Shown here one piece after another: positions 48,390 through 51,355 of a stretch of 64,000 bases of DNA (positions are counted from its first letter, which is position 1; every line of letters begins with the position of its first letter). The translations under genes and the position numbers were made by a program. Under the pieces are notes generated by a model that was not told the DNA's origin, ran no database searches, and was given only the letters and a program-made list of their open reading frames with translations. Origin of the DNA: Escherichia phage vB_EcoM_JN03; the sequence record OR885871. One strand, written 5' to 3'.

Positions 48390-50015
48390 TCATGCGCCTT
48401 TACCACCAAAATTGCCGCCGTTATCCTCTAACTCCGGTTTTATATCAATTGGACCTGGGCCTGTAGTTGTTACAGGAGTTGCCCCCGCACGTGAGGCGGC
48501 GCGGCCAGCGCCTTCAGCATATTTGATGTTGCCTTCAATAGTCTGCGCAACCGATAATTTATCGCAAATTATTTCAGTTGCCAGTATCTTAGGAACCTTC
48601 AAAGTGTTAGACACTTCAAACATTTCACAGATGAGACGCAACACGTTCTGTGCCTGTATCTCAGCCAATTGGGAAAATTTCATCAACGCCGTGCCAGCGA
48701 CCACATTGGAGTAGTTAGAAGAGTGCAAGTGGTAAACTTCTCCTGTCTTACGCTGTACTTCAGTCCCGCCGATAGTCAGGTTATGATCGCGCCCCACATA
48801 ATAACGTTTGTCAAACATCGTCAGATCATAATGATCTTTGACTGATTTATTGACCACGTCCCCGTCAGGAAGCATCTGCTTATAAGACCCCGAGGAGTGC
48901 ATCCAATGGAGACGTTCCCCGCCTGGAGTGTCATCGACCTCCATAATATGCCCAGCTCGAGAAGCCATAACATTGTTGTATGGATAACGAGACCCTCCAG
49001 CCGAAGGAACCGATACCTCTCCTGTGTTGTCAATATCCTGAACACGACCAGAAGGAGGCGGTGTTTCTTGGACTTTCGGGGTACGATCTGGAATAGGTTC
49101 AGACCATTTACCGTTTTGTTGTGCCGGAGCTGCTGAAGCTGTAGTTTCTGGACCTGGCCAACGATAACCCAACACGGATGAGCGGCTAAAACGGCTCACC
49201 TTCACCGAATCGGATTGGTTTCCCCCGATACACCAAACGTAGTTGGCGTCAAATTTCTGAACGAATGCAACGTGACCGAATGTCGGGTTGTTCCCGCGCC
49301 GGAACACTACAACAGCGCCGTAACGTGGTTCTGACAGAGGAGATCCCCATTGTAGATATGAGCGAGCCAAAGCAGAACGTGTTGATGTATATCCGGCCTG
49401 TATCAGAACCCATCCAACAAACGACGCACACCAACTAACTTCATCTTCTGAAGCCCCCAGGGAAGTTGTCTTATGATATTCCAATATCCTTGGGTTGTTA
49501 TTGAACTTACCAGAATATTCTTTGACGCCCAATTCCCCACGAGCCACGGTCATCCACTTCTCAGGATCATATCCGCCTACTGGTGGTTGTGGATCCGGTT
49601 GCGGTTCATCCTCAATCTTAACAGGAACATTCTCGACGGCATTATACTTCTGCCTTTCTATAGATTGAACGACCTGACCCAGCGCCAATGGGTTTGTATC
49701 TGACCCATCTGTTGGTGTTGCTGCTGGCCATACCCATGCAATACGGATGTTCTGATATGCTTCATCCAAAGCAAACCCCATGACGTCAGAGCCGACAGTG
49801 ATACCCGTCGGAGACCAGCCTAAACCTGCCGAGGAGGCGTTAGATGCTGGCATAAGCATTTTACCCCAAGGCAATAATTCTGTAGGCAGGAGAGTGGTAT
49901 CCTCCGTGTGTACCCCATAGATGCGTACTGCGACGCGCCCGTTTTGATCGGGATCATTCACGTCTTCAACGCGCCCGTAAAACCAACGCAAGTTGTCTAA
50001 CATATTGAAACCCAT
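48390..50015 (-). CDS. 5: baseplate hub/tail spike protein (gp5-like) with Cys-His peptidase-type lysin domain
   Basis: N-terminus NLRWFYGRVEDVNDP...GRVAVRIYGVHTED...PTELLPW matches the gp5 OB-fold start; middle has Cys...His blocks (SWCASFVGWV...GHVAFV) of CHAP or NlpC/P60 type rather than a lysozyme. Confidence 0.7.
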   Translation of the reverse strand: MGFNMLDNLRWFYGRVEDVNDPDQNGRVAVRIYGVHTEDTTLLPTELLPWGKMLMPASNASSAGLGWSPTGITVGSDVMGFALDEAYQNIRIAWVWPAATPTDGSDTNPLALGQVVQSIERQKYNAVENVPVKIEDEPQPDPQPPVGGYDPEKWMTVARGELGVKEYSGKFNNNPRILEYHKTTSLGASEDEVSWCASFVGWVLIQAGYTSTRSALARSYLQWGSPLSEPRYGAVVVFRRGNNPTFGHVAFVQKFDANYVWCIGGNQSDSVKVSRFSRSSVLGYRWPGPETTASAAPAQQNGKWSEPIPDRTPKVQETPPPSGRVQDIDNTGEVSVPSAGGSRYPYNNVMASRAGHIMEVDDTPGGERLHWMHSSGSYKQMLPDGDVVNKSVKDHYDLTMFDKRYYVGRDHNLTIGGTEVQRKTGEVYHLHSSNYSNVVAGTALMKFSQLAEIQAQNVLRLICEMFEVSNTLKVPKILATEIICDKLSVAQTIEGNIKYAEGAGRAASRAGATPVTTTGPGPIDIKPELEDNGGNFGGKGA

Positions 50016-50035
50016 TAGTCAATTAGAATCATGTG

Positions 50036-50043
50036 ATATTTAT
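50036..50043 (-). promoter_or_regulatory. late-promoter variant (CATAAATA) upstream of gp5
   Basis: Minus-strand CATAAATA about 25 nt upstream of the gp5 ATG; one mismatch to TATAAATA. Confidence 0.35.
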
Positions 50044-50340
50044 GGCGGGGATTTGAAATCTGTCGAATAATATATTATAGGAAGCTCTGCTTCCGTTCAA
50101 CCTTTATTCTTTTCGTTCCTACTCGCTGAAGCTCGTAACACCGCCTTGACAGGCAGTCCCATTCCAATGCCATGGAGGCATAAAGGCGAGGAAAATACTG
50201 TACACCTCAGAACATGCGTAGAAAAGGATTATTTTTGCTTCAAAACAAATTCAAACCCCAATTGCACAACACTTACTTCAGCAACAACGGTGTTATAGCA
50301 ATTTAAGGTTAAACGTTCCTGTCTTAACCTATAAAACAGG

Positions 50341-50370
50341 TAAGCAAAGAAAACCCCACATTACGTGGGG
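50341..50370 (-). terminator. rho-independent terminator (minus strand)
   Basis: CCCCAC-atta-GTGGGG hairpin followed by TTTTCTTTGC on the minus strand, downstream of the 50522-51325 gene. Confidence 0.5.
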
Positions 50371-50521
50371 TTGGAAGATTTCTTAGACAATCTAATTTTC
50401 AGTGTCTCGGTAAGCAAATCAAGATGCCACGGCATCGATTCACTAATTTCAAATATGCTATAGCCGTGTGCCTTTAATTCGTCACACATCACAAAATAGG
50501 AGAGTAAATCAATTTCAAAAA

Positions 50522-51325
50522 TTAAATGAAAATCTCAGTGACACTGTTAAATTTGACTTCGTGTTCTTTCCCACACGAAGGGCATTTAATTTTTGTCGCG
50601 TAACGAATACGCGGAATCTTTTTAAAGAAATCATTCGAAATGTCCTGAACAATCTCAGATTCAATATTGTCCCCAACCCATTTGACAAATTCATCCTTAA
50701 TGCGTTGGCGTTCTTTAGCAACTTCTGGATCGATACCAGGTTCAGCCGGATTTTCCACTTTCCAAACCTGACCATCGTCGTCATACAGGCAATCGATAAA
50801 GGTGGCAATCATTTGTTCAACAGAGGATGCTTCATTAAGCACTGAGGCATCCGAGAAGGACGGCTGGCGCATCTTTATATGATAACCACCTGGTAGATCA
50901 AACGTCTCCCTGAAGCCTTCTGGAGACACGCATTTTACCTGATTGAGCGGGATCGGTAACACAAGCTCTTGACCACAATCTTTAACACCAGAAACTGGTT
51001 CTTCACCTTCATTTGTGTCGGCTTGAACTTTATTGTTACATTTGTAACGTATCTTCATGACCTCGCCGATAGATATACAGCGCATCTTTAAAAATACTTC
51101 TTCAGTAACACCGATTGGCAGTTTACTAAAGGGAACGCCAGCATCAACACAACTGTCAAATAGTTGCTCCAATGTTGCCACGCGCTCACTCATAGGAGTG
51201 TTCGGATCAGCAACCTGAAGTAACATGGTCTGTTGCCCTGCTGTAAAGGCGCGGTATTTGATCACAGTCGGCCAGAAATCACTTTTATGTGTTCTCTCAG
51301 TTTTGGGCAATGATGGTAAATTCAT
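50522..51325 (-). CDS. late-expressed protein with C-terminal CxxC zinc ribbon, 267 aa (baseplate-module candidate)
   Basis: GGAGAT RBS; exact TATAAATA 28 nt upstream; C-terminal KCPSCGKEHE; co-oriented with gp5 and gp25. Confidence 0.55.
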   Translation of the reverse strand: MNLPSLPKTERTHKSDFWPTVIKYRAFTAGQQTMLLQVADPNTPMSERVATLEQLFDSCVDAGVPFSKLPIGVTEEVFLKMRCISIGEVMKIRYKCNNKVQADTNEGEEPVSGVKDCGQELVLPIPLNQVKCVSPEGFRETFDLPGGYHIKMRQPSFSDASVLNEASSVEQMIATFIDCLYDDDGQVWKVENPAEPGIDPEVAKERQRIKDEFVKWVGDNIESEIVQDISNDFFKKIPRIRYATKIKCPSCGKEHEVKFNSVTEIFI

Positions 51326-51347
51326 AATGTATCTCCACGGTATATTG

Positions 51348-51355
51348 TAATTGTA
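51348..51355 (-). promoter_or_regulatory. T4-type late promoter (TATAAATA)
   Basis: Exact octamer on the minus strand 28 nt upstream of the ATG at 51325. Confidence 0.55.

Follow-up and report, generated by a model that had tools for sequence, protein, structure and literature searches.

Among the systems described to date, those closest to the locus treated here are the PeSLs, small promoter/terminator cassettes found in T4-type genomes (PMC4122927), and the late transcription signals of the Ackermannviridae. Regarding the latter, late promoters of gp5, gp6 and gp2 were listed for phage phiSboM-AG3 from a search with the T4 late promoter sequence TATAAATA allowing one mismatch (PMC3121705), and 33 late promoters were counted in the LIMEstone paper (PMC3296691), while in the CBA120 paper neither late nor early promoter signals of the family were identifiable and it was argued that its divergent regions must hide unknown promoters (PMC3184105). 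The DNA examined here is a stretch of 64,000 nucleotides (nt) from Escherichia phage vB_EcoM_JN03 (OR885871), referred to as the window, a Kuttervirus sequence (Ackermannviridae; Vi01/Det7/CBA120 group), with emphasis on its segment 48390-51355, which holds the genes for the baseplate hub proteins gp5 and gp26 and the gap between them (50016-50521). Both the late promoters and the peptidase domain of gp5 were already published in 2011 for CBA120 and phiSboM-AG3, and they also figure in the annotation of many GenBank records. The structured cassette present in the gap belongs, with its two relatives before gp6 and gp45, to a family of elements across the Ackermannviridae for which neither Rfam nor the searchable literature yielded a description, and its hairpin module appears to be shared beyond this phage family. 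Neither the structured cassettes nor the ATT start of a small gene beside the first of them is mentioned in the CBA120 and phiSboM-AG3 papers (PMC3184105, PMC3121705). Along with the late consensus aCTAAATAc discussed below, the three cassettes offer concrete sites for the promoter problem which the CBA120 authors left open, in a phage family widely used in biocontrol of Salmonella, E. coli O157, Klebsiella and Dickeya.

Each genome has three related cassettes of one plan, located before gp5 (cassette A), gp6 (B) and gp45 (C). Cassette A, of approximately 170 bp, occupies 50074-50236 on the minus strand as delimited by alignment and a covariance model (R1). Cassette B lies outside the window and was located by sequence comparison in phage Det7 (locus L012, about 5046-5243, sense to gp6). 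Cassette C was identified upstream of gp45 at 5529-5675 on the plus strand, with a fold z-score of -2.79 and a weak match to R1 (17 bits, E 0.013). All three are present in an IMG/VR contig with a gp5 100% identical to that of the window (loci L048, L030, and L145), and cassette C is kept in Kuttervirus, Taipeivirus and Agtrevirus/Limestonevirus. Every cassette begins with a promoter-like part consisting of an A-tract, a (C)TTTTC box, a spacer of 18-19 nt and the sequence TAnnnT, an order found in all three types and in every genus examined, with a spacer that is constant in length and variable in sequence by locus and genus. In cassette A (50197-50236, minus strand) these are the A-tract at 50231-50236, CTTTTC at 50221-50226, an 18-nt spacer and TACAGT at 50197-50202, and in cassette C (plus strand) an A-tract, GCTTTC at 5536-5541, a 19-nt spacer and TAATAT at 5561-5566. 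When the pattern taken from the three loci was searched against a whole genome, the matches were those three and one stray, a restriction which led to the rejection of a generic class of early promoters.

The structured core of cassette A (50085-50191, minus strand) scores 107.7 bits with R1. Common to all cassettes is hairpin H2, with the form X-GA-GC / loop / GC-GA-X', in which two G.A pairs are held between Watson-Crick pairs and the loop is often GAA or GUA; in the hairpin table it reads TTA-CGAGC-TTCA-GCGAG-TAG in A (50138-50119, minus strand) and ACGAGC-GAA-GCGAGT in C (5602-5616, plus strand). The longer hairpin H1, with two G.A motifs 4 bp apart, is found in B, in the region upstream of gp5 in Erwinia-like relatives, and in C, where its two tandem G.A pairs lie within 5565-5597 of the plus strand. 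Extra helices are confined to A and B, and their positions in A, taken from the alignment, are all on the minus strand. P1 is ATGCC/GGCAT in A (AUGCC/GGCAU as RNA; 50181-50167) and CAGCC/GGCUG in B. A candidate pseudoknot would pair TCCAT with ATGGG (UCCAU/AUGGG; 50176-50172 with 50162-50158) and displays an A-U to C-G change as well as a C-G to U-A change in one lineage, while P3, CTGCCT/AGGCGG (50156-50141), has three covarying positions. Cassette A ends with the hairpin GGAAGC-AGA-GCTTCC (50080-50094) followed by an invariant TATAAT (50074-50079); two positions of its stem show compensatory changes between genera, and this segment (50074-50094, minus strand) is possibly a weak terminator or attenuator. 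A scan also detected a terminator-like hairpin at the end of cassette C (5654-5675, plus strand), which is swapped for a different hairpin in Taipeivirus. Separately, a CGCGCGAG / CGCGCGTAG box lies between the cassette and the late box downstream in many copies and genera (5676-5690 of the window, 5222-5232 of L012, and upstream of gp5 in L063, L065, L156, and L157), its distance, measured in three copies, varying from 10 to 27 nt. A different conserved box, TTG(N)TATAAY, is found upstream of cassette A (50292-50300) and downstream of cassette C (5701-5712), and could be another promoter element.

The fold was assessed in two alignments. With 21 sequences aligned by MAFFT, 96.8% of cells are paired, compared to 28-44% with slid partners, and six pairs have changed on both sides. 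A model-guided alignment of the same set with two more distant genomes has 96.2% of cells paired (slid controls, 32-43%), with changes on both sides in 9 of its 21 pairs; in this alignment neither the pairing level nor the count of double changes was reached by shuffles (0/500). The tandem G.A pairs are unchanged in all 24 hairpins of a curated table (a loosened hairpin expression gave mostly noise), with neighbouring pairs that vary (C-G, U-A, A-U, U.G) and outer stems of unrelated sequence. The core of the gap is near-invariant across genera, and both the structure of the cassettes and its conservation are evident from these comparisons. As the conserved G.A and U.G pairs are confined to the gene-sense strand, and the sense strand of cassette A folds more strongly than the antisense (-35.6 versus -28.5 kcal/mol), the cassette would appear to act single-stranded and in the sense orientation.

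The explanation which is favoured, with modest confidence, is that each cassette gives rise to a short structured transcript. This is preferred because of the constant distance by which the promoter-like motif precedes the element, the terminator-like hairpin after cassette C, and the RNA-like character of P1, the pseudoknot and P3. Cassette A would be a small transcription unit of its own between a terminator and the late promoter of gp5, with the A-tract, CTTTTC, 18-19 nt and TAnnnT series starting an RNA of approximately 110-160 nt near 50190. Such an RNA would fold into hairpins with tandem sheared G.A pairs, to which the gp5 and gp6 copies would add P1, the pseudoknot and P3, and its synthesis would stop at, or pause before, a hairpin immediately preceding the late promoter. 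Most likely it would serve as a protein-binding structured RNA or as a leader acting before late transcription; we infer the transcription, the binding partner and this role from sequence.

A number of points weigh against a transcript. No convincing sigma-70 promoter was found at the cassettes by consensus scan, and a literature search found no transcript data for the Ackermannviridae, so that the transcription of the cassette, its start and the length of its RNA are predictions. The putative -10 box of cassette C lies directly against H1, so that a normal start would remove the outer arm of that hairpin. Cassette A taken alone has a fold z-score of -1.37, weak thermodynamic support. Among the related sequences compared, the compensatory changes amount to few independent events, and three of the four helices had been used in fitting the model-guided alignment (A7). 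P1 and the pseudoknot adjoin each other with no linker, and their pairings may be alternative instead of coexisting; RNAalifold proposes a further alternative in which the GCGAG arm of H2 is paired with CUCGC from the 5' end of A. Furthermore, the inverted hairpin pairs seen in phage RB16 and in bacterial palindromes (see below) would equally fit a DNA-level or generic structural role.

Comparison with known elements gave no assignment to a described RNA class. Rfam returned no gathering-level match across the whole window, chance-level matches alone at E up to 10 for the gp5 gap and the region upstream of Det7 gp6, and none at the G.A hairpins of bacterial contigs. A kink-turn was rejected, given that the G.A pairs are flanked on both sides by Watson-Crick pairs with at most one 3' nucleotide bulged, in contrast to the three-nucleotide bulge of a kink-turn. 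Hammerhead, kink-turn and riboswitch classes were judged by eye to be missing from the cassettes in their defining nucleotides or bulges. Partial likeness of hairpin parts to CRISPR repeats or the lac operator was judged coincidental, and mimicry of the host was set aside with cassettes A and C lacking a match in the E. coli genome.

The tandem-G.A hairpin can also be found in other genomes. The exact core of H1 (21 specified bases) occurs in one alphaproteobacterial metagenome-assembled genome among those of GTDB, which is within chance, and also in 12 non-phage metagenome contigs; in every match the flanks differ yet are complementary. In Bradyrhizobiaceae-like contigs the hairpin sits within composite palindromes of approximately 170 bp in which the opposite strand carries another G.A hairpin. 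The T4-like phage RB16 has the H2 core CACGAGCGAAGCGAGT upstream of late gene 3 (L177 700-870), again with a second G.A hairpin on the opposite strand and with TATAAATA boxes between the two, while the Burkholderia jumbo phage BcepSauron has three such hairpins within approximately 120 nt (L178 700-830) and a Mycobacterium repeat primer carries the core GA-GC-GAA-GC-GA. Across these two phages and the REP/MITE-like palindromes of GC-rich bacteria (metagenome contigs L162-L176) the hairpin has this form or a double CGAGTTGTGAGC..GCGAACAACGAG form, and it is often paired on opposite strands. For comparison, unrelated viral loci gave three matches in 321 kb, all without complementary flanks. These results support the tandem-G.A hairpin being a real and reusable structural module, and given its presence in unrelated phages as well as in bacterial repeats, it may be a general structural signal that has been overlooked.

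This distribution bears on a second explanation, the main rival although considered less likely, according to which the cassette works as DNA, its hairpins forming on a displaced or single-stranded gene-sense strand. The cassette might then mark an origin of replication or an R-loop, a site for the primosome or for clamp loading, or a recombination hot spot, or it might behave like repetitive extragenic palindromic (REP) elements. The same hairpin inverted on both strands in RB16, BcepSauron and REP-like palindromes is hard to accommodate in one transcript, and the genome has three dispersed cassettes in which a promoter-like element is followed by hairpins. Mini-hairpins of the d(GCGAAGC) type are unusually stable in DNA, and the context 5'-Y-GA-R-3' favours sheared G.A pairs in DNA too; the G.A pairs of the cassettes have this context, and the hairpin loops, often GAA or GTA, are closed by G-C. 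In T4, oriF and oriG combine a promoter with a downstream element, and gene 5 as well as genes 25/26 have origins next to them. However, these T4 origins are a putative parallel, and no AT-rich unwinding element follows the promoter-like motif of the cassettes. The terminator-like hairpin after cassette C likewise speaks for a transcript, and the P1, pseudoknot and P3 elements of the gp5 and gp6 copies, the conserved G.U pairs and the strand asymmetry are all typical of RNA. Besides the d(GCGAAGC) mini-hairpin, the known elements most similar to the hairpin are bacterial palindromic repeats resembling REP elements or miniature inverted-repeat transposable elements (MITEs); an identical core (CGAGTTGTGAGC-loop-GCGAACAACGAG or GA-GC-GAA-GC-GA) is found in the Bradyrhizobiaceae-like contigs, the Mycobacterium repeat primer, RB16 and BcepSauron. 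In bacteria such hairpins are part of composite palindromes, present on both strands and many times over, whereas the hairpins of the Ackermannviridae are direct, on one strand, and associated with additional helices and a promoter-like motif. With three loci per phage genome, all of them gene-sense, the cassettes are not REP/MITE-like, while the bacterial instances are.

A more specific proposal, which can be regarded as tentative at best and rather improbable, is that either the cassette transcript or hairpins on the displaced strand provide a fixed site engaging the replication or clamp machinery, that is, an origin or a loading point for gp45 which activates the late promoter 20-110 nt downstream. 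If true, the phage would have a built-in enhancer of late transcription in place of the random nicks of T4.

With the PeSL cassettes (Arbiol 2010; Comeau 2014, PMC4122927) the elements described here share a small intergenic format and a promoter-like element with stem-loops at unit boundaries, and they too are positioned beside terminators and promoters. Ordinary punctuation of this kind, in which the hairpins would merely stop or stabilise transcripts and have no specific partner, could also explain the wide occurrence of the tandem-G.A hairpin among unrelated genomes, which is what one would expect of a generic module of high stability. It is nevertheless thought improbable. PeSLs have plain G+C stems next to near-consensus sigma-70 promoters and occur in many copies in variable regions. 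The promoter-like motif of the cassettes has a constant spacing but fails a consensus scan, and a terminator-like hairpin is clear in C alone. The cassettes number just three per genome, at fixed syntenic sites by core genes, and possess tandem G.A hairpins and a pseudoknot-type domain. In addition, the G.A pairs are invariant in every tabulated hairpin and the core is nearly invariant across genera, a constraint far beyond the need of a terminator.

The preliminary description of this DNA considered the approximately 500 bp between gp5 and its upstream gene to be non-coding with a terminator. The terminator was indeed located, at 50352-50372 on the minus strand (nine pairs and a T-run in a scan), but the gap cannot simply be called non-coding, as it contains a conserved open reading frame (ORF) of 53 codons in addition to the structured cassette (50085-50236). 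In a nine-genome alignment the gap has a mean column identity of 73%, about equal to that of the flanking genes, and it is composed of five parts: the small gene, the terminator, a less conserved stretch of approximately 110 nt which contains TGCTATAAC, the cassette, and the CATAAATA box. That it is an unremarkable non-coding spacer with a terminator, leaving the late promoters and the peptidase as the notable features, is in keeping with the lack of any annotation there in most GenBank records. This is judged very improbable indeed, considering that the small ORF is conserved as protein and that the gap has a core whose structure is conserved and which recurs at other places of the genome.

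The 53-codon gene (50361-50522, minus strand) lies directly after gp26 and matches PHROG 9633 over its full length (1.9e-36). Its product follows the pattern (I/M)FE(I/T)DLLSYFVMCDELK.HGYS.FEI.E.MPWHLD.LTE.LK and has a weak match to the gp51-type hub assembly catalyst family (phrog_634, 0.0035), and its variants are distributed 20:13:48 over codon positions 1:2:3. In Kuttervirus, Taipeivirus and Miltonvirus the gene begins with ATT (50520-50522, minus strand), overlapping the TAA stop of gp26 as TAATT, whereas in Ag3, Dickeya and CRW-SP2 phages an ATG overlaps this stop as TAATG. Since the first 11 codons remain conserved as protein also with the ATT start, the gene probably starts at ATT, coupled to the translation of gp26; otherwise a GTG or ATG 10-11 codons downstream would serve. 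In GenBank the gene is either omitted or begun 11 codons late, the alternative ATG at 50489 giving the 42 amino acids annotated as Det7 gp92. Its stop codon is inside the loop of the terminator, which closes the gp26/small-ORF unit and has a stem with compensatory changes across genera (CCCCAC/GTGGGG, CCCCGC/GCGGGG, TCCCGC/GCGGGA).

Regarding late transcription, boxes similar to the T4 late promoter TATAAATA are positioned 21-34 nt before gp26, gp5 and the gp54-like gene, each a -10-type box without a -35 element and each on the minus strand. The box of gp26 (51354-51361) is an exact TATAAATA 28 nt before the ATG at 51325, and that of the gp54-like gene (56148-56155) is likewise exact and lies 34 nt before the GTG at 56113. 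The preliminary description had given 28-30 nt for both, a distance which holds for the first and not for the second. Its one-mismatch variant before gp5 is confirmed as CATAAATA at 50037-50044, 21 nt before the ATG at 50015. By count alone TATAAATA means nothing, with three observed in the window (two of them on the minus strand) and 2.0 expected by chance; the weight of these boxes rests on position, strand and conservation. Before gp5, ATAAATA is unchanged in all nine aligned genomes (five or more genera) with flanking bases that vary, and TATAAATA has the same place before gp26 in 10 of 12 genomes.

In phage Det7, (a)CTAAATA(c/t) precedes the sheath, scaffold, tailspike, gp14 and gp6 genes, and one-base variants of it (ACTAATTA, ACTAAGTA) are found at the portal, tail-tube and major-capsid genes. 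A genome-wide search, which had been suggested for the T4 octamer, revealed that all 22 copies of CTAAATA in the whole window and the Det7 loci share the orientation of local genes, although this total is not above the prediction from base composition (approximately 31 by our own estimate), and that TATAAATA is a minority variant. Judged from these sites, the late consensus of the family is nnTAAATA with AC preferred, most commonly aCTAAATAc, and TATAAATA and CATAAATA are minority forms of it. As a side observation, the annotated TTG start of Det7 gp6 is upstream of its own late box CTAAATAT (locus L012 5250-5257; entry 5246-5300), and a good ribosome-binding site with an ATG at 5297 follows this box; the annotated start is probably wrong.

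The proteins expected for T4-type late transcription are also encoded in the window. These are the gp55-like late sigma factor which had already been proposed (maximal ORF 27553-28359, plus strand; PHROG 234, 1.7e-53; annotated as Det7 gp63), a gp33-like late transcription co-activator (53525-53767, plus strand; PHROG 254, 4.2e-23) and the gp45 sliding clamp (5782-6450, plus strand, with cassette C upstream; PHROG 223). By homology, the T4-type box of each late unit, TATAAATA or CATAAATA, would be read by the host RNA polymerase with phage gp55 and gp33, and the promoters would be activated by the gp45 clamp. In view of the fixed position of the box, of its conservation in different genera and of the gp55/gp33/gp45 machinery being encoded, the earlier suggestion that the late genes form opposite-strand islands under T4-type late promoters is supported. 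Similarity to T4 comprises the TAAATA core at -10, the absence of a -35 element and homologs of all three proteins, while the Ackermannviridae differ in having aCTAAATAc as the majority form, with transcription starts that are predicted here from sequence. A further ORF (5078-5443, minus strand), divergent from gp45, is labelled 'clamp loader subunit, T4 gp45-like' in Det7; it matches only phrog_4255, a PHROG of unknown function, the true sliding clamp being at 5782-6450.

The gp5-like baseplate hub or central spike gene has 541 codons (48390-50015, minus strand; PHROG 430, 5e-157). In silico analysis assigns to its product a Gp5_OB domain at residues 39-98 (Pfam, 6.4e-10), a CHAP domain at residues 191-266 (Pfam, 3.4e-10; 40.7 bits against a cut-off of 26) and, overlapping the latter, a match to NCBIfam TIGR02594 at residues 154-286 (8.7e-39; 132.9 bits against a cut-off of 70.55), placing the NlpC/P60-CHAP cysteine-peptidase domain at 49158-49556 on the minus strand by Pfam, NCBIfam, structural model and Foldseek. 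In a sequence comparison with the PDB, the solved gp5 chains of T4 type cover no more than residues 4-87 and 338-435. The N-terminal OB region corresponds to T4 gp5 residues 6-91, and residues 338-435 to T4 gp5 residues 384-476, the start of the C-terminal beta-helix spike. The catalytic residues are Cys196 and His248, with a GGNQS motif at 264-268; W195-C196-A197, H248 and G264-G-N-Q-S268 are invariant in 15 sequences, these being the query and 14 homologs with identities down to 35%. An AlphaFold2 model of residues 140-300 has a mean predicted local distance difference test score of 90, and its best PDB matches by Foldseek are the C. difficile autolysin Acd24020, MepS, LytE and the CHAP domains of LysK and LysGH15.

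Pfam and NCBIfam profile searches found no lysozyme family in gp5, and lysozyme is absent among the PDB fold matches listed for the middle domain. A lysozyme reading of this domain was therefore rejected, the T4 gp5 matches skipping residues 90-338 and the fold matches being peptidases of the NlpC/P60 and CHAP types. The earlier view that gp5 retains its OB-fold with a CHAP or NlpC/P60-like middle domain instead of a lysozyme has thus withstood its proposed refutation, and the middle domain is supported as a predicted papain-like NlpC/P60-CHAP cysteine peptidase in place of the T4 lysozyme. As a papain-like cysteine peptidase would replace the lysozyme, cleavage of peptide stems or cross-links of the cell wall rather than of the glycan strand would be expected during tail penetration; on the side of caution, both the activity and the bond specificity are predictions from the fold and catalytic residues.

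A domain of this type was reported in CBA120 gp5, with CHAP/TIGR02594/NlpC_P60 at residues 150-282 and T4 gp5-like flanks (Kutter et al. 2011, PMC3184105), and the homologs of CBA120, Vi01 and phiSboM-AG3 are the same protein at 97-98% identity with nothing substantially different. T4 gp5 (PDB 1K28, 1WTH, 1PDL) has in common the OB domain, the beginning of the beta-helix and a hub set beside gp25/gp26, and differs in its lysozyme domain, the peptidase here being predicted to cleave peptide or amide rather than glycosidic bonds. MepS of E. coli, LytE of B. subtilis, Acd24020 of C. difficile and the CHAP domain of phage K LysK share the papain-like fold and the Cys-His pair (Foldseek probability 1.0, template-modelling score 0.5-0.7, 10-23% identity), while in gp5 the domain is embedded in the virion spike of a Gram-negative myovirus. 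Other Gp5_OB proteins identified by homology search possess an M15 peptidase, lysozyme or other domains, and swapping of the hub enzyme appears to be common. With respect to the start of the gene, the 541-codon form begins MGFNMLDN (50001-50015, minus strand), whereas other genera begin at MLDN/MLEN, equivalent to a second ATG at 50003. An NCBI cluster of 537 amino acids agrees with this ATG, which may be the real start.

The region is the baseplate-hub cluster of a Kuttervirus, with two predicted minus-strand late units, the first comprising gp26 and the 53-codon gene and closed by the intrinsic terminator, and the second gp5 and gp25. The gp26-like baseplate hub gene is at 50522-51325 (minus strand; Pfam T4_baseplate, 1e-51; PHROG 150), and the maximal ORF of the gp25-like baseplate wedge gene at 47945-48358 (minus strand; Pfam GPW_gp25; PHROG 261/43; annotated as Det7 gp90), though its product has 126 amino acids in annotations of relatives, implying an ATG near 48325. 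The tail-tube-like gene of the gp54 type (baseplate tail tube initiator), with a GTG start, is at 55172-56113 (minus strand) and matches PHROG 3629 over its full length (5.8e-181). A gp54 homolog is listed in the LIMEstone1 proteome (PMC3296691), which we infer to be the same gene. Around these minus-strand baseplate genes are plus-strand genes for replication and nucleotide metabolism, and no tRNA or tmRNA was found by scan. The stretch 47900-51400 has 98-99% identity to more than 100 GenBank phages of the Vi01/Det7/CBA120 group and 60-90% to related phages of Klebsiella, Dickeya, Shigella and Serratia. Two GenBank entries, OR844942 (Enterococcus phage Efm 3-10) and MN871475 (Pseudomonas phage Pa-sanjiao), contain Kuttervirus sequence (94-100% identity) and are probably mislabelled or contaminated records.

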